A stretch of DNA of 37,969 bases from Betaproteobacteria bacterium (GTDB taxonomy: Bacteria; Pseudomonadota; Gammaproteobacteria; Burkholderiales; JACQAP01). Both the position numbers and the translations under genes were made by a program. Within the stretch, counting starts at the first letter, position 1; each line of letters opens with the position of its first letter. The stretch lies in NCBI GenBank assembly GCA_025357235.1, contig JANXPQ010000539.1:1-37969 (forward strand), written 5' to 3'. This document shows, one piece after another, positions 2,567-16,064 of this stretch. The notes under the pieces are model-generated. The model worked only from the letters and a program-made list of their open reading frames with translations, was not told where the DNA came from and searched no databases.

Positions 2567-2815
2567 CTAGCGGCGGTGCAGTTGAATTGTCTTGACCGGC
2601 GAGGCCGCCGGCGCATCCGTCGCACACCCCTTGCATGTACTGCAACCCACGCTTTCGGCCCCGGATTGCAGACGCGCGAACCGGGCGCGCCGGGAGGAAG
2701 GCACGATCGTGATGAGACGGGCAATCAGCCAGCGGCGCATGGCTTGCGGCATGAACAGCCATCCCGCGTAGAAGATTGCGATGGCGACGATGAAATAAGC
2801 GATAAGGGTCTGCAT
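2567..2815 (-). CDS. Small membrane protein with C-terminal CxxCxxC motif, translationally coupled to feoB
   Basis: 82 aa. One N-terminal TM helix (LIAYFIVAIAIFYAGWLFM), a basic linker, then GCSTCKGCA. The ATG lies 3 nt after the feoB stop, with a GGAGG inside the feoB 3' end 8 nt upstream. Confidence 0.7.
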   Translation of the reverse strand: MQTLIAYFIVAIAIFYAGWLFMPQAMRRWLIARLITIVPSSRRARFARLQSGAESVGCSTCKGCATDAPAASPVKTIQLHRR

Positions 2816-2818
2816 GAA

Positions 2819-4690
2819 TCAGCCTCCCGTCAATACCAAGGCCACCCGATAGGTAATAAAGGAAGCCAGGTAGGCCAGCAAAAACAGATAGCCCGCCATG
2901 ATTAACGGATAGCGTATCGAATTGGTTTCACGCCGCACGATCGACAGCGTCGAAATGCATTGCGGCGCAAACACGTACCAGGCAAGCAGGGAAAACGCCG
3001 TCGCCAGCGACCAGCTCTGCGCGATCATCGGCGTCAATTGCGCTGCCACGTTTTCGCCGGTGGCGGAAAGCGCGTACACCGTACCCAGCGCCCCGACTGC
3101 GACCTCGCGAGCTGCCAGCCCCGGTATCAGGGCGATCGAGATCTGCCAGTTGAAGCCTATCGGCGCCAAGACCGTTTCGAGCCCCCGCCCGATCATTCCG
3201 GCAAGACTGTACTGGATCGCCGGTCCGCTGGCGCCGGCTGGTGGCGCCGGGAACGAGGACAGGAACCAGAGCAGGATGGTCAACGACAGGATGATGGTGC
3301 CGACGCGTGCGAGAAAGATTTTTGCCCGCTCGATGAGGCCCATGATGAGATTTCTCGGGTTGGGCCAGCGGTAAGACGGCAACTCCATCAGCAGCGGATG
3401 CAGCATTTTGCGTCCGGCGGCGAGCTTCATGACCCAGGCGACCGCCATGGCGCTCACGATTCCCGCGAGATACAGAACGAAAAGCACTACGCCCTGAAGA
3501 TTGAGGAAACCGAGCACGGTCTTTTGCGGAATGAAGGCGCCGATGATCAGCGCGTAGACAGGCAGCCGCGCCGAACAGGTTGTCAGCGGGGCGATCATGA
3601 TCGTGGTCAAGCGGTCGCGCCAGTTGGCGATGTTGCGCGTGGCCATGATGCCGGGGATCGCGCACGCAAAACTCGACAGCAGCGGAATGAAGGAGCGGCC
3701 AGACAGCCCGACCGTCCCCATCAGCCGGTCGAGCATGAAGGCGGCGCGCGGCAGATAGCCTGAATCCTCCAACGCCAGGATGAACAGAAACAGGATCAGG
3801 ATCTGGGGCAGGAAGACCAGCACGCTGCCCGCGCCTGCGATCACGCCGTCGACAAGCAGGCTTTGCAGGATGCCCGCGGGCAACCACGTCTTCAGCAATT
3901 CACCGGTCGCCTCGACGGCGGCCTTGATCGCATCCATCGGCCACTGGGCCCAACTGAACACAGCCTGGAACATCAAAAACAACGTTACCGACAAAATGAC
4001 GTAGCCCCAGAACGGATGCAGCACAACACGATCGAGCGCGTCGTCCACGCGCAGCTCGTTCGGCGGCTCGCGCACGGCAACGGCAAGGATGCGCCGAACT
4101 TCGCGTTGAGTCGTCGCCACGTCTTCGATGTCGGGCGCCTTCCATGCGGAAACCACAGTCGGCCGGTCCGACACATGGCTCTGGATCGCGTTGATCAGTT
4201 CGTCCGCGCCGCCGCGCCGTACGGCGACGGTCTGTACGACGGGCATGCCGAGTTCCCGCTCGAGCGCATGGACGTCGATTTCCACGCCACGATGCTTGGC
4301 GACATCCGTCATGTTCAACGCCAGCACCATCGGCAGTCCCAACCGCTTGGCTTCGACAACCAGCCGCAGGTTCAGGCGCAAATTGGTGGCGTCGGTCACG
4401 CATACTAGCAGGTCCGGCTTTTCCTCATCCTTCTTCGCGCCGAGCACCACGTCGCGGGTGATGGTTTCGTCGAGGCTCAGTGCATTCAGGCTGTATGCGC
4501 CGGGCAAATCAAGAACACGGATGCGTTGCCCGTCCGGGGTTTCGAACAGTCCTTCCTTGCGCTCGACGGTCACGCCTGCGTAGTTCGCAACTTTTTGCCG
4601 ACTGCCTGTCAGCAGATTGAACAGCGCGGTCTTCCCGCAATTGGGATTGCCGAGCAATGCGATGCGCAGCGCCGCGTGGGAAGCAGTCAT
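2819..4690 (-). CDS. feoB: Ferrous iron transporter FeoB
   Basis: 623 aa. N-terminal G domain (GNPNCGKTALFNLLTG, DLPG) followed by a polytopic membrane domain. Overlaps the feoA stop by 4 nt. Confidence 0.95.
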   Translation of the reverse strand: MTASHAALRIALLGNPNCGKTALFNLLTGSRQKVANYAGVTVERKEGLFETPDGQRIRVLDLPGAYSLNALSLDETITRDVVLGAKKDEEKPDLLVCVTDATNLRLNLRLVVEAKRLGLPMVLALNMTDVAKHRGVEIDVHALERELGMPVVQTVAVRRGGADELINAIQSHVSDRPTVVSAWKAPDIEDVATTQREVRRILAVAVREPPNELRVDDALDRVVLHPFWGYVILSVTLFLMFQAVFSWAQWPMDAIKAAVEATGELLKTWLPAGILQSLLVDGVIAGAGSVLVFLPQILILFLFILALEDSGYLPRAAFMLDRLMGTVGLSGRSFIPLLSSFACAIPGIMATRNIANWRDRLTTIMIAPLTTCSARLPVYALIIGAFIPQKTVLGFLNLQGVVLFVLYLAGIVSAMAVAWVMKLAAGRKMLHPLLMELPSYRWPNPRNLIMGLIERAKIFLARVGTIILSLTILLWFLSSFPAPPAGASGPAIQYSLAGMIGRGLETVLAPIGFNWQISIALIPGLAAREVAVGALGTVYALSATGENVAAQLTPMIAQSWSLATAFSLLAWYVFAPQCISTLSIVRRETNSIRYPLIMAGYLFLLAYLASFITYRVALVLTGG

Positions 4691-6740: not shown

Positions 6741-7913
6741 ATGAGCGACAAAAAACACGACAAGCAAGGCTTTGCCACCCGCTCGGTCCACGCCGGACAA
6801 GTGCCGGATCCGGCGACCGGCGCGGTAATGACGCCGATCTTCGCCACCTCTACGTTCAAGCAGCACTCGCCCGGTGTGCACACGGGCTATGAATACGCCC
6901 GCTCGCAGAATCCGACCCGGCATGCGTTCGAGCGCTGCATTGCAGACCTCGAGAGCGGGACGCGGGGATTCGCCTTCGCCTCCGGATTGGCCGCCAGCAG
7001 CACGGTGCTGGAGCTGCTGGATGCGGGCAGCCACATCGTCGCAGCGGATGATTTGTACGGCGGATCCTGGCGGCTGTTCGAGCGGGTGCGCAAGCGCTCG
7101 ATGGGCCTGAGAACGAGTTATGCCGATCCGAATGTCGCCGGCTCGCTGGAACAGGCGATCCAGCCCGATACGAAAATGATCTGGGTGGAGACGCCGTCGA
7201 ATCCGTTGCTCAAGATTACCGACCTGGAACAGGTCGCGAAGATCGGCAAGGCGCGCGGCATCCTCACGGTGGTGGACAACACCTTCGCGTCGCCTTACGT
7301 GCAGCGCCCGCTCGACCTGGGCATCGACATCGTGCTGCATTCCGTGACCAAGTACATCAACGGCCACTCCGACATGATCGGCGGCGCCGTCATCGTCAGG
7401 GATCGCGTCGACATCGCGGAGAAGCTGGAGTACATGCAAAACGCGATCGGTTCGATCATGGATCCGTTCTCCAGTTTCCTGGCTCTGCGCGGCGTGAAGA
7501 CGCTGCCGCTGCGGATGAAGCAGCACTGCGGCAATGCCATGCATCTGGCCGCCTGGCTGAAGTCGCATCCGCTGATAGAAAGGGTGATTTATCCCGGGCT
7601 GCCGAACCACCCCCAGCATCTGCTGGCGGCAAAGCAGATGAACGGCTTCGGCGCGATGATTTCGGTTTATCTGAAAACCGATATGGGCGGCGTGCGCCGC
7701 GCGTTGGAGGCCTGCAAGGTATTTACGCTCGCGGAAAGTCTGGGGGGCGTGGAAAGCCTGATCGGACATCCGGTCACCATGAGCCACGGGTCATTGCCGA
7801 TGGAATTGCGTGCGCGTCTGGGCATTACCGACAACCTGGTGAGATTGTCGGTGGGCATCGAAGACATGGAAGACCTGATCGCCGACCTCGATCAGGCAAT
7901 GGGGAAAATCTGA
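6741..7913 (+). CDS. Cys/Met-metabolism PLP-dependent enzyme, cystathionine gamma-lyase/synthase family
   Basis: 390 aa with the family lysine motif HSVTKYINGHSD. Starts 10 nt after the CBS-type gene. The pairing suggests gamma-lyase (reverse transsulfuration), but specificity cannot be read from the sequence. Confidence 0.85.
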   Translation: MSDKKHDKQGFATRSVHAGQVPDPATGAVMTPIFATSTFKQHSPGVHTGYEYARSQNPTRHAFERCIADLESGTRGFAFASGLAASSTVLELLDAGSHIVAADDLYGGSWRLFERVRKRSMGLRTSYADPNVAGSLEQAIQPDTKMIWVETPSNPLLKITDLEQVAKIGKARGILTVVDNTFASPYVQRPLDLGIDIVLHSVTKYINGHSDMIGGAVIVRDRVDIAEKLEYMQNAIGSIMDPFSSFLALRGVKTLPLRMKQHCGNAMHLAAWLKSHPLIERVIYPGLPNHPQHLLAAKQMNGFGAMISVYLKTDMGGVRRALEACKVFTLAESLGGVESLIGHPVTMSHGSLPMELRARLGITDNLVRLSVGIEDMEDLIADLDQAMGKI

Positions 7914-8428
7914 TGAAATTCAACTCGCGCCTGATTTATCTGGCGATCTTCCTGGTCTGCACCGGGCTGATCGGTTTCGCACTTTATCTGCAGCACTCGC
8001 TCGGGCTGGAACCCTGCCCGATGTGCATCCTGCAGCGCTATGCGTTCATCGTGGTCGGCGTGATCGCGCTGGTTGCGGCAATCCACAACCCGGGCCTGCT
8101 GGGGCGCCGCATTTACGGCGGGGTGTTGGTGGTCATGGCCGCGACCGGCGGCGGCGTGGCGATCCGGCATGTCTATCTCGAACACAACCCGCCCAAAATA
8201 TTCGATTGCGGCGCGGATGTCGGCTTCATGCTCGAATCCTTTCCGCTCACGGAAGCGCTGCCGATGATCTTCCGCGGCACCGGCGATTGCACCAAGGTAG
8301 TATGGCAATTCCTCGGCCTGTCGATCGCTGAGTGGTCGCTGGTCTGCTTCGCACTGCTGATCGTCGCCGCCGTCATAGCCGTAACGATAAAACGACGCGG
8401 CTTGTTTCTGCACTCCGGTGCGCGCTGA
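7913..8428 (+). CDS. dsbB: Disulfide bond formation protein B
   Basis: 171 aa, four TM segments, CPMC in the first periplasmic loop and a second Cys pair (FDCG...GDCT). ATG overlaps the preceding stop (TGATG). Confidence 0.9.
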   Translation: MKFNSRLIYLAIFLVCTGLIGFALYLQHSLGLEPCPMCILQRYAFIVVGVIALVAAIHNPGLLGRRIYGGVLVVMAATGGGVAIRHVYLEHNPPKIFDCGADVGFMLESFPLTEALPMIFRGTGDCTKVVWQFLGLSIAEWSLVCFALLIVAAVIAVTIKRRGLFLHSGAR

Positions 8429-9190
8429 TCAGAATTGCGCGCCGCGCGTCAGCGCCCCGTCCACCACCAGATTGCTGCCGGTGATGAAGCTCGCTGCAGG
8501 ACTGGCGATGAATGCCACGGCATTCGCCATTTCCTGCGGCGTACCCATTCTGCCGGTCGGGTTCAGGGCGAGCGCTTCCGCGTAAAGCTTCGGATTGCCG
8601 TCCTTGATCTGGTTCCATACGCCGCCTTCGAAATAAGTATTGCCCGGCGACACGGTATTGGCGCGAATACCCTTGCCGGCCAGCTGAAATGCCAGACCCT
8701 GGGTGTAGTGAATGAGCGCGGCCTTGAACGCGCCATAAGGACCAGCGGCAAAATCGATCTCGCGTCCTGAGACGATGGAAATCGTCACGATTGCGCCGTG
8801 ACGGCTTTTTTCCAGATACGGCATGGCGGCAGCGACCATATTGACCGCCCCCATCATGTCCACCGCGAAGCCTTTGCGCCAGCTCTCTTCGTCGCCGCCG
8901 ACAGCCAGCGCGCTGACGTTGGCCACGATGATGTCGATGCTGCCGAATTCCTTGCCGACGCTGCCGACCCAGGCTTTCAGTGCCGGACCGTCCGCCACGT
9001 CCAGGGCGCTGCCGCTCGCATTGACACCCTTTGCCCGTAGCGCGGCAACGGCACTTTTCACATCTGCCGCATGGCGTGCGCAGATCGCCACGTCGGCGCC
9101 TTCGCTGGCAAGCGTCTCCGCAATGGCACGTCCGATGCCTTTGGTACCGCCGGTCACGACAGCTTTCAACTTCTTGAGCCCGAGATCCAT
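8429..9190 (-). CDS. SDR family oxidoreductase
   Basis: TGGTKGIG cofactor motif and YGAFK (YxxxK). Start chosen at MDLGLKK..., which has AAGGAG 8 nt upstream. Confidence 0.85.
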   Translation of the reverse strand: MDLGLKKLKAVVTGGTKGIGRAIAETLASEGADVAICARHAADVKSAVAALRAKGVNASGSALDVADGPALKAWVGSVGKEFGSIDIIVANVSALAVGGDEESWRKGFAVDMMGAVNMVAAAMPYLEKSRHGAIVTISIVSGREIDFAAGPYGAFKAALIHYTQGLAFQLAGKGIRANTVSPGNTYFEGGVWNQIKDGNPKLYAEALALNPTGRMGTPQEMANAVAFIASPAASFITGSNLVVDGALTRGAQF

Positions 9191-9247: not shown

Positions 9248-10150
9248 TCAGGGCCCGCCGCCTGCAACGGCCGATAGTTCCCGCCAGAATTCGAGCGCCG
9301 TCTGCGTGCGCCATTCCACGTGGCGGCGTAGCGCCTTGGCCACGACCGGACCAAATTTGGAATCGTGTTTGGCAGCCAGCGATTGCGGAATGCCACCGAG
9401 AATTTCCTCGCGCGTGAAGTAGGGAATTTCCTTGAGCATCAACGCCAGCAACAGCAATCCGGTCTGGTAGATGTCCACATGACGCCCGATCGCGCCGAAC
9501 TTTTCGGGCTCGAAGGCCTCCGGCGGTCGCATCCAGTCGGCGAGCAGAGTCTGGAACACCCGAATGTCGGACTCCAGCCGGGTCAGGCCGAGATCGCCCA
9601 CCTTGAAAGACCAAACCTGTTCCTTGATCATCCGGCGCTGGCGCCGCTGCTCTGTGACGAACACATTGCCAGGATGCAAATCCTTGTGCACGTATCCCGC
9701 GGCGTGGATGTAGTCGAGCGCCTGCAGGACATCGCGGGCGACGTAGGGAATCCAGCGGTCGGCATCCAGGCCCAGGCGCGTGATCAGGTGCGACAGCGTA
9801 AAACTGCAACGCTCGATGATGAGATAGAAGGTGTCCTTGAACTCGAAGGCGTCGTAGACGAACGTGATATTCGGATGACGCATGACGAGCAGCTTGCGCA
9901 ATTCATCCTGCCAGACGCGGCGCACTTCGCGGTAAGACTGCTCATGCGGAATCAGGATTTTGGCGACAAGCGGATTGCCCCAGTCATCGGTGCAGTCGTA
10001 CACCATGCCGAAGCCGCCCTGGCCGATCGCATCGCCGATGAAGTAGCGACGGTCGCCGTTGACGAGCACTTCGCCTTTCGCCGGCGGCTGGAACCGCCGC
10101 GGCTGGCGAAGGGCAATATTCCTGATCGCTTCGAGCCGGGGCGACTTCAT
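9248..10150 (-). CDS. Ser/Thr protein kinase (Hanks type), kinase domain only
   Basis: GQGGFGMVY glycine loop, VAKIL lysine, HKDLHPGNVFV catalytic loop, GDLGL in place of DFG, PPE in place of APE. Start MKSPRLE... has AGGAGAGG 8 nt upstream. Confidence 0.85.
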   Translation of the reverse strand: MKSPRLEAIRNIALRQPRRFQPPAKGEVLVNGDRRYFIGDAIGQGGFGMVYDCTDDWGNPLVAKILIPHEQSYREVRRVWQDELRKLLVMRHPNITFVYDAFEFKDTFYLIIERCSFTLSHLITRLGLDADRWIPYVARDVLQALDYIHAAGYVHKDLHPGNVFVTEQRRQRRMIKEQVWSFKVGDLGLTRLESDIRVFQTLLADWMRPPEAFEPEKFGAIGRHVDIYQTGLLLLALMLKEIPYFTREEILGGIPQSLAAKHDSKFGPVVAKALRRHVEWRTQTALEFWRELSAVAGGGP

Positions 10151-10265: not shown

Positions 10266-10928
10266 TCAGGGCATCGTGGCGAACGTTACCCCGATCATGG
10301 AGTCGCGCGTGACCAGCGCAGCGAGTTTATCTTCCGACCATCCGTCCGTGCCTGCGGGACGCCTGGGTAACACCAGATAACGCATGTCGGCCGTGGAATC
10401 ATGCACCCGCACCACCATGTCATCCGCGATATCCGTGCCGAATTCCTTGAGCACGTCGCGCGGTTCATTGATCACGCGCGATCGGTAGTTGCGGCTTTTG
10501 TACCAATCGGGCGGCAATCCGAGCAGCCAGCGCGGATAGCAGGAACACAACGTGCAGACTATGACGTTGTGCACGTCATCCGTGTTTTCCACGACCACCA
10601 GCTTGTAGATTCCGTCATCTATGCCGAGCGCTTTGCAGGCTGCATTGCCATCGGACAGCAGCAGCTTGCGGTATGCCGGATCGGTCCATGCTTTCGCAAC
10701 AACCCGCGCACCTTGCAACGGCGTACGGTTGTCCATGTCCTCGACCGCGCGGCGCACTTCGTCCGCAGTCAGGATGCCCTTTTCGATCATAAGTCCGCGC
10801 ACGGCTATTTCCATCGCGCGCCAGTAAGTGATGGTGTCATCCTGGTCCGGACGCAGAGGCGGATGCTTGTGCGGCGCGCCGCCGGGGGAATGGGAATGAT
10901 CGTGCGGATGGTCGTGATCGTGAGGCAT
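10266..10928 (-). CDS. Nitrile hydratase family alpha-type subunit, cobalt-type metal site, His-rich N-terminus
   Basis: VCTLCSCYP at aa 124-132 (nt 10539-10556 encode CTLCSC). Thr and Tyr flanking the cysteine claw are the Co-type signature. The first 22 aa contain 8 His (MPHDHDHPHDHSHSPGGAPHKH). Confidence 0.9.
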   Translation of the reverse strand: MPHDHDHPHDHSHSPGGAPHKHPPLRPDQDDTITYWRAMEIAVRGLMIEKGILTADEVRRAVEDMDNRTPLQGARVVAKAWTDPAYRKLLLSDGNAACKALGIDDGIYKLVVVENTDDVHNVIVCTLCSCYPRWLLGLPPDWYKSRNYRSRVINEPRDVLKEFGTDIADDMVVRVHDSTADMRYLVLPRRPAGTDGWSEDKLAALVTRDSMIGVTFATMP

Positions 10929-10930
10929 GA

Positions 10931-11236
10931 TTATCGTTCCGGTTCGAGCCAGTGCTGATAGATTTCGATGTCCACGGTATCGTCGGCTCCGCTGCGATAT
11001 TCCGGCCAGACTTCACGCTGCAGGAATCTCACGCGGTACAGTGGCTGCTTCGGCAGTCCCGGCCGCGCATAAGCAAGTTCTTCCGGATTGCCGTACACGC
11101 CGCACAGCCGTTCGATGATGCCGTGCTTGCCGCGGATGTAGTAGGGCGTGCGGATGTGGCCCAGCGGATAAATCGCGCGTACGGCAACGGCATCGCCGGG
11201 AACGAACCTCGGGGCGGCACGGTCAGTGTTCGCCAT
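10931..11236 (-). CDS. Nitrile hydratase family beta subunit, C-terminal-half protein
   Basis: 101 aa. ...PRFVPGDAVAVR...HIRTPYYIRGKHGIIE...LYRVRF...EIYQHWLE resembles the SH3-like C-terminal half of NHase beta. Stops 2 nt before the alpha ATG. Confidence 0.8.
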   Translation of the reverse strand: MANTDRAAPRFVPGDAVAVRAIYPLGHIRTPYYIRGKHGIIERLCGVYGNPEELAYARPGLPKQPLYRVRFLQREVWPEYRSGADDTVDIEIYQHWLEPER

Positions 11237-11537
11237 TGGCCTGCGCTTTCGCGATGCCCGTGCCGAGTTCGTCGATGGTGATGACGCCGCGCTGGATCAA
11301 TGTCTGCGTGATCGCATAGATCCAGCGCTCGTAATAACTCATCTTGTCGTACGCTTCGGCGCCGAGCGTCTCGATGTTCCGCCGCAGTTCGTCCACCGTC
11401 AGGTGCCCCTTCTTCGACAGCAGCACCATCAGCGCGTCCACGCGTTTTTCCCACAATGCGTAATCGTGCTCGGTCGCCTCGACCTTGCCCGCGGGCAATC
11501 CGCCCATATCGTGAATGCCGCGATAGCTCATCGTCAT
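11223..11537 (-). CDS. Nitrile hydratase family beta subunit, N-terminal-half protein
   Basis: MTMSYRGIHDMGG... is the canonical NHase beta N-terminus (GIHDxGG). Ends QANGEH*, overlapping the next ORF's ATG by 14 nt. ATG choice of 11537 versus 11531 is uncertain. Confidence 0.8.
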   Translation of the reverse strand: MTMSYRGIHDMGGLPAGKVEATEHDYALWEKRVDALMVLLSKKGHLTVDELRRNIETLGAEAYDKMSYYERWIYAITQTLIQRGVITIDELGTGIAKAQANGEH

Positions 11538-11565
11538 CGGATATGCGAAACCTGATTGGGTTGAT

Positions 11566-11592
11566 GCGCCGGCCCCGGATCGGGGCCGGCGC
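11566..11592 (-). other. Perfect GC-rich stem-loop (11-bp stem GCGCCGGCCCC, 5-nt loop) between the MFP gene and the NHase genes
   Basis: Seen directly. No U-tract follows on either strand. A perfect TATAAT (minus strand, 11599-11604) lies just upstream. Confidence 0.5.
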
Positions 11593-11612
11593 AAAAGAAT
11601 TATAGGACGAGC

Positions 11613-12815
11613 TTACTTCGGTTGCTGCGGATTTGCGGCCGGGGCAGCTTTGGCAGGCGGGGCGGCGGCGGACGCGGCCTGTGGCACCGGTGCGGCGGGC
11701 GAAGCGGCCGGATTCACCTTGGCCCCGTCCGGCACCGTGTTCGGGAGGCTGAGTACGACCCGCATGCCCTCTCCGACGCCGCTGGCAATCCTCACTGCCG
11801 CCCCGTCGGTGCCCGCGATTTCGATCGGGGTCAGCTTGATGTGGTTGTCCGCTTCGAGCACCGCAACGAAATTCTTGCGGTCCCGCACCACCAGGGCGGA
11901 TGCCGGCACTTCGATGTAACTCGTCTGCGGCACCATCAGCGCAACGTTGACGAACGAGCCCGGAATGAACGTGGCGCCGCGATTGTCGAAATCGACCTCC
12001 GCCAACAGCGTGCGCGTCCTCGGATCGAGTTCTCCCGCCACGCGGCTGACCTTGGCTTTGACGCGCTGCGTGGGGTTGGCGGTATCGATGATTTCCGCCT
12101 CGATGCCGGGATGCACGAAGCGCGCATCGACTTGTTCGGCGTAGACGCTGACGCGCAATGTCGACGGATCTGCAATGGTGACGACCGGCTGCGACGAAGT
12201 CTGGTTGTTGGCTGCGTTGGTAATCAGCGCGCCCGGATCCACATAACGCCCGGTCACGACTCCGGCATAAGGCGCATACAGGCTGCGATAGCCCATCTGC
12301 GCCCGCAGGATGTCCACGCGGCCGCGCGACGTGCGCACTTCGGTATCGGCATTGTCGAGCGCCTGCTGCGAAAAGAATCCCTTTGCGGCGAGGTCGCGGG
12401 TGCGCTGCGCCTGGCGCTCGCGGTTCTCCATTTCCGACACCGTGCTTTTGTATTCGGCCTCGAGTTCGGGGGCCTGGACCTCGGCGATGAGCTGCCCCGC
12501 ATGCACGCGGTCGCCGACATCCACCGTGATCCTGGACAGGTAACCCCCTACTTTGGAGTACAGCGTGGTCGCCTTGTAGGGCCGCAACTCGCCGGTCAGG
12601 TTGATCTTGCGGGAGGCGGAACCGCGCACGGATTGTCCAACGACCACGGTGGGCCCCGCATCGAGCTGGGCTGCGCGCGTCCTGGCCTCGTCGGCGAGGT
12701 GATTCTGCTTGTTCTGCCAGAACCACCAGACTGCCGCGCTCGCCACGGCCACCAGAACGAAAGCGACTATGTAGAACACCAAAAAGGAATCGCGTCGTCG
12801 CTGCATCGCGGCCAT
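11613..12815 (-). CDS. Efflux RND transporter periplasmic adaptor (MFP) subunit
   Basis: 400 aa. N-terminal TM anchor, lipoyl/coiled-coil region (VDVGDRVHAGQLIAEV...), Ala/Pro-rich tail. Starts 12 nt after the RND permease stop; GAGGAG lies 8 nt upstream. Confidence 0.9.
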   Translation of the reverse strand: MAAMQRRRDSFLVFYIVAFVLVAVASAAVWWFWQNKQNHLADEARTRAAQLDAGPTVVVGQSVRGSASRKINLTGELRPYKATTLYSKVGGYLSRITVDVGDRVHAGQLIAEVQAPELEAEYKSTVSEMENRERQAQRTRDLAAKGFFSQQALDNADTEVRTSRGRVDILRAQMGYRSLYAPYAGVVTGRYVDPGALITNAANNQTSSQPVVTIADPSTLRVSVYAEQVDARFVHPGIEAEIIDTANPTQRVKAKVSRVAGELDPRTRTLLAEVDFDNRGATFIPGSFVNVALMVPQTSYIEVPASALVVRDRKNFVAVLEADNHIKLTPIEIAGTDGAAVRIASGVGEGMRVVLSLPNTVPDGAKVNPAASPAAPVPQAASAAAPPAKAAPAANPQQPK

Positions 12816-12827
12816 TCTCCTTGCTCC

Positions 12828-15800
12828 TCAGGCTTGGCGTCCCTGCGACTCGGCCTCGAAGCGGGCATCGAGCTCGTGCAGGATCGGCATGCTTTTTCTG
12901 ACTAACGTGTAAATCACCGGCACCACGAAAAGCGTGGCGATGGTCGCCATGGCCAGGCCGCCGATCACCGCGCGCCCGAGGGGCGCGTTTTGCTCGCCCG
13001 CCTCTCCCAGTCCCAGCGCCATCGGCACCATGCCGATGATCATGGCCAGCGCGGTCATCATCACCGGCCGCAGGCGCGTCATGCCCGCTTCGATCGCCGC
13101 TTCGACCACACCCAGCTTTTTTTCCACCCTCAGCTCGTTGGCGAAACTCACGACCAGGATCGAATTGGAAACGCCGATGCCGACCGCCATGATCGCACCC
13201 ATCAGGGACATGACGTTGATCGTCGTCCCGCTCAGCGCGAGGATCCACAGAATCCCGATCAGGGCGCCCGGCACCGCCATCATGATGATGAACGGGTCGA
13301 TCCACGATTGGAACAGCACCACCAGCAGCGCATAGACCAGCACGATAGCCAGCAGCAGGCCCCCGATCAGGCTCTCGAAGGATGAGTTCATGACCTGGTA
13401 TTGGCCGCGGATGATGACCTTCGCCGTCGGCGGAAAATCCTTCTCGGCCGTCATTGCGTCGATCTTGCGCTTGATGTCCGAGACGACGCCGCCCAGATCA
13501 CGGCCATCGACGTTGGCCGCGATGTCGAGCACGCGTTGCACGGTGTAATGCGATACCGATTGATAGCTCGTTTCCGGCTTTACCGTGGCGATATTGGACA
13601 GCCGGGTCACCGGCGCGCCAGGCGTGGCATCGAGACGCGCCGTCGCCGAGATATCGAGCACCGGGGTGGAACCGGAGGTGATCGGCGTCGCCATCAAGTC
13701 ATCCACCGAACTCATGCGCTCTATCGGCGTTTGTACCGCGACGGTGTAATTCACGCCGTTCGGATTCAAAAAATAGGAGGGATTGACGATTGCGCTGGAC
13801 GACAGCGATGTCAGCACATTGCTGGCCACGTCGCGTTGCGTGAGTCCGAGCCGGGCCGCTCGCACGCGATCGACCTCCACGCGCAATGCGGGGTAGTTCA
13901 GCACCTGCATCTGCCGCACGTCGACCGCCCCCGGCGTCTCCTCGATGATCTTGAGCACCCGCGATGCGTAGCCCTGCGCCCGGTCGAAGTTCGAATCCTG
14001 GATCTGCACGTCGATCGGGGCCGGCAACCCGAAGTTCAGTACCTGGGTGACGATGTCGGCGTTCTGGAAGTACATGGTCGAGCCCGGGAACTTCGGGGGC
14101 AGTTTCTCCCTGAGTTCGCGCATCCAGTGGGCCGACGGCTGGTGCGGATGCTTCAGCGAAATCAGAATGTCGGCGTCCATGCCGCTGATGTTGTCCGTCG
14201 GCACGAAGGCGAGGTTGAAGAAAAGCGGTACCCCGAGCATGTCGTTGATCGTCGATATTTCCCCGGCCGGAATGATCTTGCGGATCTCCTCCTGGACCTC
14301 GAGCACCAGTTTCTCGGTTTCTTCGATGCGCATGCCCATCGGCGCGCGGAAATGCAGTTTCAGAATGCCGACGTCGGCCGTCGGGAAGAAATCGGTCCCG
14401 ACCACCCGGCCAAGGAAGATGCTGACGCCGCCCATCAGCAGCAGGCACACCAGCACGAAGGGGCGGTGGTGCATGATGACTGTCAGCACACCACCGTACG
14501 TGTTTTGCAGCCATTCCAGGACGTTCTCACGTGCGCGATTCAATCGCGCTGCAATCCCCTGGCCGGTACCGTCATCGTGATGTTCGCCCGCCAGCAGTTG
14601 CCGGGAGAGCATGGGCACCAGCGTAAACGACAGGATGTATGACGCGAGCAACGAGAACACCACGGACAGCGCAAGCGGAACGAACAGGAATTTCGATACC
14701 CCGTACAGGAACGCCACGGGGATGAAAACGATGCAGATCGCCAGCGTGGCCATGGTGCGCGGCACCGCCACCTCGCGGGATCCTTGCAGGATCGCCACTG
14801 TGAGCGGTTGACCCATTGCGCGGTGCCGGTGAATGTTTTCCACCGCAACCGTCGCATCGTCGACGAGGATACCGGTGGCGAGCGACAGGCCGGCCAGCGT
14901 CATCAGATTGATGGTGTTGCCGGTGAAATACAGGCCGAGTATGCCGGCGGCCATTGCGCACGGAATCGAGGTGATCACGACGATGGTATTGCGCCAGGAA
15001 CCGAGGAACAGCAAGACCATGAGCGACACCAGCAGGGACGCGATGACCGCCTCGGAGGCTACGTTCTTGATTGCCGCGCGCACGTAGACCGACTGGTCGA
15101 AATCGAGTTTGACCTCGATGCCTTCGGGGGCAGCCTTCTGGATTTCCGGAAGTATGTCGCGGGTGGCTTCGACCACCGCCAGCGACGAGGCCTCCGAGTG
15201 CTTGAGAATGGTGAGATAAGTCGCGCGGCGGCCGTCGACGTGAACGATGTTGTTTTGCACGGCGTACCCATCCGCAACCTTTGCAACGTCACCGAGCAGC
15301 ACGGGTACGCCGTTCGATATGCGCAGCGGCATCTGGTTGAACTGGTCCACTGTCGGCGGACTCGAGTTCATCATCACGTTGTATTCGGTCGAGCCGATGC
15401 GCGCGGTGCCCGCCGGAACCAGGATGTTCGAACTCTGCAGCGCATTGACGACATCGTTTGGCGAGACGCCTTTGGCCGTCATCAGCTGCGGGTTCAAGTC
15501 CACCATGATCTGGCGCAGACGGCCGCCAAACGGCGCCGGCACGGTCAGGCCCGGGATGGTGAACAGCTTCACGCGCACGAAGTTGAACGCGTGGTCGAAA
15601 ATACGCCCCTCGGGAACCGTCTTGCTCGACAACACCATCTGTACGATCGGCACCGTCGCCGGGTCGTACTGGATGATCACGGGCGGGGTAATGCCCGGCG
15701 GCAGGATGCGCAGGACGGTGCCGTTGATGGCATTGATCTGTGCGATCGACGCGCCGATGTCGGTACCCTGGTGGAAATACACCTTCACCAGTCCGATGCC

Positions 15801-16064
15801 GGGAATGCAGTTGGATTCGATGCGGTCGATGCCGTTGACCGTCGTCGAGTAGGCGCGCTCGCTGATGATCACGACGCGGCGCTCCATTTCCTCGGCCGAG
15901 AGGCCGGGGTAGTTCCAGCCGACGAATACGACCGGGATGTCGATCTTCGGGAAGAAGTCGACCACCATGCGCGTCACCGCGAGGCCACCGAGCAGGAGCA
16001 CGAGCAGCGACAGCACGGCGACCGTGTACGGGCGGCGCAACGCCACCCGCACCAATTCCATCAT
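12828..16064 (-). CDS. Efflux RND transporter permease subunit (AcrB/CzcA superfamily)
   Basis: 1078 aa, 12-TM architecture with two large periplasmic loops. GGAG lies 8 nt upstream of the ATG. Confidence 0.95.
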   Translation of the reverse strand: MMELVRVALRRPYTVAVLSLLVLLLGGLAVTRMVVDFFPKIDIPVVFVGWNYPGLSAEEMERRVVIISERAYSTTVNGIDRIESNCIPGIGLVKVYFHQGTDIGASIAQINAINGTVLRILPPGITPPVIIQYDPATVPIVQMVLSSKTVPEGRIFDHAFNFVRVKLFTIPGLTVPAPFGGRLRQIMVDLNPQLMTAKGVSPNDVVNALQSSNILVPAGTARIGSTEYNVMMNSSPPTVDQFNQMPLRISNGVPVLLGDVAKVADGYAVQNNIVHVDGRRATYLTILKHSEASSLAVVEATRDILPEIQKAAPEGIEVKLDFDQSVYVRAAIKNVASEAVIASLLVSLMVLLFLGSWRNTIVVITSIPCAMAAGILGLYFTGNTINLMTLAGLSLATGILVDDATVAVENIHRHRAMGQPLTVAILQGSREVAVPRTMATLAICIVFIPVAFLYGVSKFLFVPLALSVVFSLLASYILSFTLVPMLSRQLLAGEHHDDGTGQGIAARLNRARENVLEWLQNTYGGVLTVIMHHRPFVLVCLLLMGGVSIFLGRVVGTDFFPTADVGILKLHFRAPMGMRIEETEKLVLEVQEEIRKIIPAGEISTINDMLGVPLFFNLAFVPTDNISGMDADILISLKHPHQPSAHWMRELREKLPPKFPGSTMYFQNADIVTQVLNFGLPAPIDVQIQDSNFDRAQGYASRVLKIIEETPGAVDVRQMQVLNYPALRVEVDRVRAARLGLTQRDVASNVLTSLSSSAIVNPSYFLNPNGVNYTVAVQTPIERMSSVDDLMATPITSGSTPVLDISATARLDATPGAPVTRLSNIATVKPETSYQSVSHYTVQRVLDIAANVDGRDLGGVVSDIKRKIDAMTAEKDFPPTAKVIIRGQYQVMNSSFESLIGGLLLAIVLVYALLVVLFQSWIDPFIIMMAVPGALIGILWILALSGTTINVMSLMGAIMAVGIGVSNSILVVSFANELRVEKKLGVVEAAIEAGMTRLRPVMMTALAMIIGMVPMALGLGEAGEQNAPLGRAVIGGLAMATIATLFVVPVIYTLVRKSMPILHELDARFEAESQGRQA

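Follow-up and report, generated by a model that had tools for sequence, protein, structure and literature searches.

Three-subunit enzymes of the nitrile hydratase family

Three-subunit, activator-less cobalt-type (Co-type) nitrile hydratases (NHases) are already characterized in Streptomyces, where they are represented by ToyJKL of S. rimosus and AnhD-AnhE-AnhA of S. canus CGMCC 13662. A three-gene locus of similar layout is found on contig JANXPQ010000539.1 of a Betaproteobacteria bacterium (assembly GCA_025357235.1; order Burkholderiales) and is the subject of this report. The whole 38-kb stretch that was analyzed is referred to as the window, and coordinates are window positions. The locus encodes a catalytic alpha subunit and, as two separate open reading frames (ORFs), the N-terminal half (betaN) and the C-terminal half (betaC) of an NHase beta subunit.

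ToyJKL is an (alpha-beta-gamma)2 hexamer composed of PF02979, PF21006, and PF02211 subunits, with masses of 21.2, 10, and 11.4 kDa. The S. canus enzyme is composed of AnhD (10.4 kDa), AnhE (the betaC, 11.35 kDa), and AnhA (21.3 kDa), encoded in the order anhD-anhE-anhA (PMC7329996). AnhD, the betaN of this enzyme, is both a metal chaperone and a chaperone for self-subunit swapping, and the genome is without an activator gene (PMC7329996). Thiocyanate hydrolase (SCNase), encoded by the scn genes, also has three subunits. Its functional expression is promoted by the activator P15K, according to the part of PMC3511329 that cites Kataoka 2006, and the genes around scn include those for an ABC (ATP-binding cassette) transporter, sulfur oxidation, cobalt uptake, and cyanase (PMC5328954).

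The eukaryotic NHases of Monosiga brevicollis and other opisthokonts are single fused beta-alpha chains, as opposed to the three-way split in the window. They share with the window enzyme a His-rich stretch right before the alpha domain and the lack of a known activator. In the opisthokont fused enzymes this stretch is a (His)n run located directly before the alpha domain (PMC3323583). For the Monosiga enzyme, metal incorporation reportedly does not depend on the (His)17 region, in the wording with which PMC7193024 cites Yang 2018.

A predicted three-polypeptide Co-type enzyme

The window is predicted to encode an intact three-polypeptide enzyme of the Co-type NHase family (Table 1). PF21006, PF02211, and PF02979 are each carried by one of the three ORFs, and the Pfam matches are strong: NHase_alpha for alpha (5.6e-81), NHase_beta_C for betaC (1.5e-21), and NHase_beta_N for betaN (8.1e-20). 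Alpha passes the NCBIfam equivalog TIGR01323 (nitrile_alph) with 260.1 bits against a cut-off of 249.85, and falls below the thiocyanate hydrolase gamma equivalog TIGR03887 (thiocyan_alph; 222 versus 291.45 bits). The beta halves score 70.2 bits (betaN) and 66.3 bits (betaC), each under the TIGR03888 (nitrile_beta) cut-off of 152.2. On that profile of 226 positions, betaN spans 2-102 and betaC spans 134-225. BetaN also weakly matches the accessory-protein model nitrile_acc (6.9e-5).

The closest solved structures for all three ORFs are classical Co-type NHases (Pseudonocardia thermophila 1IRE, Bacillus pallidus 2DPP, B. smithii 1V29, and Pseudomonas putida 3QXE), at ~1e-63 for alpha. The best PDB match of betaC is 1v29_B (7.2e-15), and the SCNase subunits rank lower. 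Alpha is 56% identical to the alpha subunit of P. thermophila NHase (PtNHase), 53% identical to B. pallidus alpha, and 44% identical to ScnC of SCNase.

An earlier note, made from the letters of this DNA, had identified the alpha motif VCTLCSCY as a Co-type signature. The motif is present, within VCTLCSCYPR (C125 to R133), and the best solved relatives are likewise Co-type NHases. The layout described in that note also proved correct, on the minus strand. Beta is encoded by two ORFs in the order N-half, C-half, alpha; betaC has its own ATG, and its first 14 nucleotides (nt) are the overlap with the end of betaN; the alpha ATG lies 2 nt past the betaC stop; and the alpha N-terminus, MPHDHDHPHDHSHSPGGAPHKH, has 8 His in 22 residues. 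The note gave the same gene order for two three-subunit relatives, scnB-scnA-scnC of Thiobacillus thioparus and the toyocamycin NHase of Streptomyces. This order was confirmed for S. canus anhD-anhE-anhA only, and one review gives that of SCNase as alpha-beta-gamma-activator. The mass of betaN is 11.9 kDa, computed on a 105-amino-acid (aa) translation with one extra leading residue.

Table 1. Features of the three-gene locus, with extra betaN-like ORFs in related loci (window positions unless loci are named)
Feature	Position	Strand	Remarks
betaN (N-terminal half of NHase beta)	11223..11537	(-)	104 aa; first residues MTMSYRGIHDMGG
betaC (C-terminal, SH3-like half of NHase beta)	10931..11236	(-)	101 aa, 11.7 kDa
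alpha (catalytic, metal-binding subunit)	10266..10928	(-)	220 aa, 24.8 kDa
His/Asp-rich alpha tail codons, residues 1-22	10863..10928	(-)	8 His
Metal-site codons C125-T-L-C128-S129-C130-Y-P-R133 of alpha	10530..10556	(-)	Thr and Tyr indicate Co type
Candidate -10 box TATAAT within conserved CGTCCTATAAT	11599..11604	(-)	~62 nt upstream of betaN ATG
Perfect 13-bp inverted repeat, 3-nt loop	11565..11593	(-)	directly downstream of -10 box, between RND adaptor stop and betaN
Extra betaN-like ORFs upstream of betaN	L036, L042, L043, L048-L051, L058, L060-L062
Extra betaN-like ORFs after alpha	L056, L073, L077

The residues expected of a working NHase are retained. The metal ligands C125, C128, S129, and C130 of alpha are conserved. 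By alignment to PtNHase sequences checked against the PDB, betaN keeps Arg52, Tyr68, and Trp72, whose numbering coincides with that of P. thermophila NHase beta, and betaC Arg29 (in GHIR) aligns with PtNHase betaArg157. The same alignment shows that Val48 and Leu51 of betaN, together with Trp72, retain the hydrophobic NHase-type pocket. The window enzyme shares with the classical Co-NHases TIGR01323 membership, the metal ligands, beta R52/Y68/W72/R157, and hydrophobic residues at beta 48 and 51. It differs in three respects. In the classical enzymes, beta consists of a single polypeptide of 220-233 aa, and the break point in the window falls within the inter-domain linker, whose ~30 classical residues are themselves gone from the alignment. 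The residue after CSCYP is Trp116 in the classical enzymes and Arg133 in the window enzyme. Lastly, classical operons have an accessory gene, as seen in the related locus L040.

Alpha also matches the NHLP-leader and Frankia_peptide models. A reading as the precursor of a ribosomally synthesized and post-translationally modified peptide was rejected because alpha is full-length and has the metal motif, and because these models derive from NHase alpha.

The split beta subunit is conserved

The beta halves lie in different frames with a 14-nt overlap, a pattern that a single indel could produce. The split could on this basis be a frameshift artefact or the decaying pseudogene of a two-subunit NHase. 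That reading was rejected because of an independent assembly and a survey of related loci. The Logan assembly L085, from an independent run, has an identical alpha, preceded by beta halves of 104 and 101 aa. In the survey, a scan of one genome per species gave >545 matching stretches, of which the best 80 were kept and, with earlier loci, made up 84 loci. BetaN and betaC are separate ORFs just upstream of alpha in 80 of these 84 loci, at alpha identities of 55-92%, in many samples and in two proteobacterial classes. Of the other four, two are truncated by the end of their contig and two have betaN fused to alpha, and a fused beta adjoins this type of alpha in none of the 84. Two NCBI contigs from metagenome-assembled genomes (MAGs), 96 and 111 kb in length, carry the same three genes. 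Conservation of the two halves is strong, with values of 1e-50 or better among the Burkholderiales relatives, and what has disappeared is simply the classical linker. An artefact or pseudogene is therefore given next to no probability. As judged from the sequences compared, the split reported in the earlier note is genuine and is maintained under selection.

In one long-read MAG (L025, 7977-8690), alpha itself is found in two overlapping ORFs corresponding to query residues 1-53 and 54-220, which is probably an assembly frameshift.

A large proteobacterial clade

The earlier note had implied that this form of the enzyme is rare. This did not hold up, as the split, the tail, and the Arg after CSCYP are clade-wide and the clade is very large. 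The scan of species representatives gave >545 stretches, and >120 protein clusters (90% identity) share 77-98% identity with the window alpha. CSCYPR is present in all of the 120 nearest clusters, and the first 30 residues of every full-length one include 5-12 His. Among relatives, the tail differs in length and sequence, with constant His/Asp-richness. In the 84 loci, exceptions to the His/Asp-rich tail and to CSCYPR are very few; L070 has CYPV.

The clade spans soil and marine Proteobacteria and includes Burkholderiales MAGs, Rhodobacterales, Rhodospirillales, and Hyphomicrobiales. Alpha identities are 79-92% for the Burkholderiales/Betaproteobacteria MAGs and 55-69% for the Alphaproteobacteria, whose cultured members include Jannaschia faecimaris DSM 100420, Roseovarius salinarum N53, and Roseovarius sp. 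SYSU LYC5162. In a neighbor-joining (NJ) tree of alpha (156 sequences, 176 columns, and 200 bootstraps), the Burkholderiales group has 98.5% support, and all deeper nodes have ~0 support, including the position of ScnC. From these comparisons, the split beta, the His/Asp tail, and Arg133 appear to be inherited traits of the clade and not peculiarities of the window genome. No published characterization of a proteobacterial split-beta NHase was found in the literature searched.

A wider search covered 1.84 billion 50%-identity representatives and gave 417 clusters at E <=1e-30, of which the best 150 were inspected. Among the 140 motif-bearing clusters of these 150, the residue after CSCYP is Arg in 62 and Trp in 14. 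A His-rich stretch just before the alpha domain is common among the same best 150 of the 417 clusters. Many alpha-family representatives (P0124-P0270) have lengths of 310-330 or 450-520 aa, and in these the alpha domain is C-terminal and preceded by a His-rich stretch; chains of these lengths resemble betaN-alpha and beta-alpha fusions. NHase subunits therefore seem to undergo fusion and fission often.

Two alphaproteobacterial MAGs, one of them a Stellaceae, encode an in-frame betaN-alpha fusion joined by a His/Asp-rich linker (L029, 7308-8600; L030, 7620-8600), and no betaC ORF was detected near these fusions. The contig of L040 has two NHase loci (2592-4219 and 7371-8651), separated by ~3-4 kb. 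The first is of the classical type, with a beta of 219 aa, an alpha with CYPWP, and an accessory-like ORF of 101 aa in one operon. The second has separate betaN, betaC, and alpha genes, with CYPRA in alpha and no accessory. The classical and split forms therefore coexist in one genome.

Comparison with thiocyanate hydrolase and the Streptomyces enzymes

The window enzyme resembles SCNase in its split beta, which gives three subunits, in the His/Asp-rich N-terminus of its catalytic subunit, in the Co-type CTLCSCY, and in the Arg after CSCYP. The ScnC, ScnB, and ScnA sequences of Thiobacillus thioparus SCNase were checked against PDB 2DD4. ScnC (2dd4_C) starts with MSADHDHDHDHDHDHKP and has CSCYPR136; 3vyg_C differs solely by R136W. 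Arg133 of the window alpha is located at the position of SCNase gammaArg136 and of PtNHase alphaTrp116 (CSCYPW116). In the work of Arakawa from 2007, gammaArg136 and betaArg90 are said to form the positively charged pocket of SCNase. The window enzyme has the equivalent of gammaArg136 (Arg133), and the equivalent of betaArg90 is Leu51. This position, Arg90 in ScnB and Phe51 in PtNHase, is Arg in 0 of 16 aligned clade members. Identity to SCNase is 44% for alpha, 30% for betaN, and 36% for betaC. The N-terminal extensions of ScnB (~45 aa) and ScnA (~27 aa) are missing from the window halves in the alignment. The alpha-ScnC match spans query residues 2-215 and chain residues 4-218, and, judging by the lengths of 220 versus 243 aa, the ScnC insertion and C-terminal tail are apparently missing from the window alpha as well.

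These features bear on the possibility that the locus encodes a thiocyanate hydrolase, or an enzyme for another small anionic pseudohalide, in which Arg133 would bind the anion as gammaArg136 presumably does in T. thioparus SCNase. The split beta, the His/Asp tail on the catalytic subunit, and the Arg right after CSCYP are common to ScnBAC and speak for it. The NJ tree also places ScnC among CYPR sequences, with PtNHase outside, and GTDB places Thiobacillus in Burkholderiales, the order of the window host. Against this, the tree nodes that link ScnC to the clade have ~0 bootstrap, alpha fails TIGR03887 and passes the NHase equivalog, and alpha is closer to classical Co-NHases (53-56%) than to ScnC. 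The betaArg90 position is never Arg among the aligned members, and the Scn extensions, and apparently the ScnC insertion and tail, are missing. Scans of the 38-kb window found no P15K-like, sulfur-oxidation, NitT/TauT ABC, cyanase, or cobalt-transport genes, so the scn-type surroundings are missing too. Since the curated score, the betaArg90 position, the extensions, and the gene context all fail, membership in SCNase was rejected, and an SCNase-like function is considered improbable.

The Streptomyces enzymes raise another possibility, namely a nucleoside-nitrile hydratase of the ToyJKL type that acts on toyocamycin or on preQ0-like 7-cyano-7-deazapurines. AnhDEA and ToyJKL resemble the window enzyme in having beta as two polypeptides of ~10-12 kDa (NHase_beta_N and NHase_beta_C) plus alpha. 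The window order of betaN-betaC-alpha also corresponds to anhD-anhE-anhA. None of these loci has an accessory gene, which for the window applies to the 38 kb, and the window betaN resembles accessory proteins. The shared three-polypeptide architecture, the Pfam composition, and the lack of an activator thus favor a ToyJKL-type function. The window alpha differs in size, at ~25 kDa as compared to ~21 kDa for AnhA and ToyJ, and owes its greater mass to the 22-residue His/Asp tail. The window host is proteobacterial, and the clade sits among proteobacterial housekeeping genes, unlike the biosynthetic clusters of the Streptomyces enzymes; sangivamycin-type NHase systems have been reported in Streptomyces gene clusters. 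Genes for deazapurine biosynthesis or tailoring were found neither among the 20 other large window ORFs (Pfam) nor among the genes of L001-L004. The chance of a ToyJKL-type substrate is accordingly regarded as very slight.

Maturation and the His/Asp-rich tail

The earlier note stated that no accessory, amidase, or aldoxime dehydratase gene is adjacent, and searches of the window ORFs bore this out. The queries betaN, 11 accessory-like ORFs of relatives, and the classical accessory of L040 were run against all stop-to-stop ORFs of the 38-kb window, and no accessory-like or second betaN-like ORF was found. For the L040 accessory, betaN is the sole match in the window (E 6.7e-6). This accessory scores the betaN proteins of the split clade at 22-25 bits, close to the 26.9 bits for its own partner beta.

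The same note proposed that the His tail replaces the Co-insertion helper. In its full form, this proposal makes the His/Asp tail a built-in metallochaperone that fully takes the place of an accessory protein. It draws on the 8 His in 22 residues, on the retention of a tail, though a variable one, in every close relative, and on the absence of an accessory both from the window and beside the genes of the cultured relatives L027, L031, and L047. The tail is found together with accessories elsewhere, which speaks against the proposal. SCNase has a His/Asp-rich stretch before the alpha domain of its gamma subunit (MSADHDHDHDHDHDH) and P15K as well. Ten relatives have an extra betaN-like ORF (~104 aa) beside the three genes, and their alphas are still His-tailed. 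In the classical operon of L040, the alpha domain is preceded by a short His/Asp stretch, and the accessory-like ORF comes after alpha. The Monosiga (His)17 region is, as noted above, reportedly not needed for metal incorporation. Conversely, S. canus AnhA at 21.3 kDa would be too small for a tail, judging from its mass, and matures activator-free. Replacement of the activator by the tail is weakly supported at best, and the full metallochaperone role is doubtful, although less so than an SCNase-like or ToyJKL-type function. By analogy to S. canus AnhD, a free betaN that acts as a swapping chaperone would be the better-supported route to activator-free maturation.

The extra betaN-like ORFs are ~100-115 aa long and occur in a subset of the alphaproteobacterial loci (Table 1). 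They are possibly accessory proteins of split enzymes.

Proposed function

The explanation that best accounts for the locus, and that is considered likely as a whole, is a coupled operon for a functional three-polypeptide enzyme of the Co-NHase family, with accessory-free maturation and a substrate other than thiocyanate. In this model, the three genes would be expressed from a promoter of their own, as a single operon with translational coupling. The products would probably assemble as (alpha-betaN-betaC)2, by analogy to toyocamycin NHase. From what is known of the family, alpha would hold a non-corrin Co(III) through Cys125, Cys128, Ser129, and Cys130, and two of its ligand cysteines would be oxidized to sulfinic and sulfenic acid. 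Arg52 of betaN and Arg29 of betaC would hydrogen-bond to the oxidized cysteines, and Tyr68 of betaN would aid catalysis. The cobalt-bound C-N triple bond would then be hydrated to the amide. Maturation would most likely proceed without a dedicated accessory, with free betaN as the self-subunit-swapping chaperone, and the role of the His/Asp tail would go no further than assisting in Co2+ capture.

The earlier note suggested that the substrate may not be a simple nitrile, and on this the residues point both ways: by alignment, the enzyme combines an SCNase-type Arg after CSCYP with an NHase-type hydrophobic beta pocket. As for the substrate, our guess is an organic nitrile that is small or comes from plants or algae, such as indole-3-acetonitrile or a nitrile that is polar or carboxylated; thiocyanate is not favored. 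In marine Rhodobacteraceae, a correlation with NHase gain has been described and is discussed alongside indole-3-acetonitrile (PMC5437341).

Several points weigh against this explanation. Arg133 is invariant in the clade at the gammaArg136 position, and could mean that the substrate is unlike classical nitriles. The scans of the window found no amidase or nitrile-forming gene near the operon that would indicate a pathway; an amidase-signature ORF is found in none of the window and in 5 of the 84 loci. An accessory gene could sit elsewhere in the genome, of which 38 kb were covered. The mechanistic steps are all carried over from characterized homologs, and the kinship to the Streptomyces three-subunit enzymes is drawn from architecture and subunit sizes.

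A broader view of the clade is that three features combined, namely the invariant Arg in the place of gammaArg136, the His/Asp-rich tail, and the division of beta, mark a separate functional class within the NHase family. Such a class would act on polar, anionic, or pseudohalide substrates with a C-N triple bond in preference to the hydrophobic nitriles of the classical enzymes, would include SCNase as a specialized offshoot, and would mature in a self-contained way through betaN and the His tail. This is rather unlikely. If true, the class would be very abundant in soil Burkholderiales and marine Alphaproteobacteria.

Upstream region

Of 26 Burkholderiales loci, 19 (the window, L006-L011, L013, and L015-L025) have a box with the sequence CGTCCTATAAT, which includes a perfect -10 hexamer, upstream of betaN, and 3 more have it in the form CCTTATAAT. 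Since the box is kept whatever the upstream gene, it points to the operon's own promoter. No conserved -35 element is visible, and a consensus promoter scan made no call at this site, where a good -35 is lacking. The inverted repeat that follows the -10 box probably gives the operon mRNA a stem-loop at its 5' end. Hairpins of other sequence are found at the same spot in L005-L008, L010, and L011. RNAalifold found one compensatory pair only across these 5' hairpins, so that conservation of the structure is weak. Rfam found no riboswitch or known RNA upstream of the operon, and its sole match is a tRNA-Phe elsewhere in the window.

Gene neighborhood

In a Pfam scan of 20 other large ORFs of the window, all are housekeeping or transporter genes, save two without a Pfam match. 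Outside the NHase operon, the window contains a resistance-nodulation-division (RND) pump with its adaptor, a Ser/Thr kinase-like gene, short-chain dehydrogenases/reductases, DsbB, cystathionine enzymes, and FeoB, as well as ABC and tripartite ATP-independent periplasmic (TRAP) transporters, PrmC, GroEL, GlmU, GlmS, and the tRNA-Phe. By position, the ORFs that are HemA and PrfA in L001 are also present in the window. No neighboring gene is common to the whole clade across the loci compared. In one alphaproteobacterial subgroup, UbiD-like, DapA-like, cupin, and MarR-like neighbors were recognized by eye.

Immediately upstream of the NHase operon are the RND efflux permease, of 1078 aa, and its 400-aa adaptor, at 11613-16064 on the minus strand. 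RND genes are upstream in some related loci only, and in others the gene is a glutaredoxin or an unannotated ORF that looks, by eye, like an acyl-CoA dehydrogenase. The upstream junction is therefore variable.

Directly downstream of alpha is a stand-alone Hanks-type Ser/Thr kinase-like gene of ~300 aa (9248-10150 on the minus strand, with a longer ORF to 10231; Pkinase 4.9e-29), in which the motifs GxGxxG, VAK, HxDLxxxN, and DLG are legible. A kinase-like gene is downstream in 23 of 26 Burkholderiales loci and in 0 alphaproteobacterial loci, and at least 8 loci have intervening genes. A functional link between the NHase and the kinase-like gene was rejected on account of this Burkholderiales-only distribution and the intervening genes, and the arrangement is treated as lineage synteny.

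Significance

For the window itself, the result is a correct annotation with little surprise, that of a real but fairly ordinary member of its clade. The clade carries the wider interest. No substrate assignment for any of its members was found in the literature searched. The usual picture of split NHases is one of Streptomyces curiosities plus SCNase, whereas the relatives compared here show the split to be the normal layout across a very large clade of Proteobacteria. The conserved Arg of the pocket offers a simple handle on specificity, and members would make convenient biocatalysts, provided that they mature in E. coli with no helper gene.

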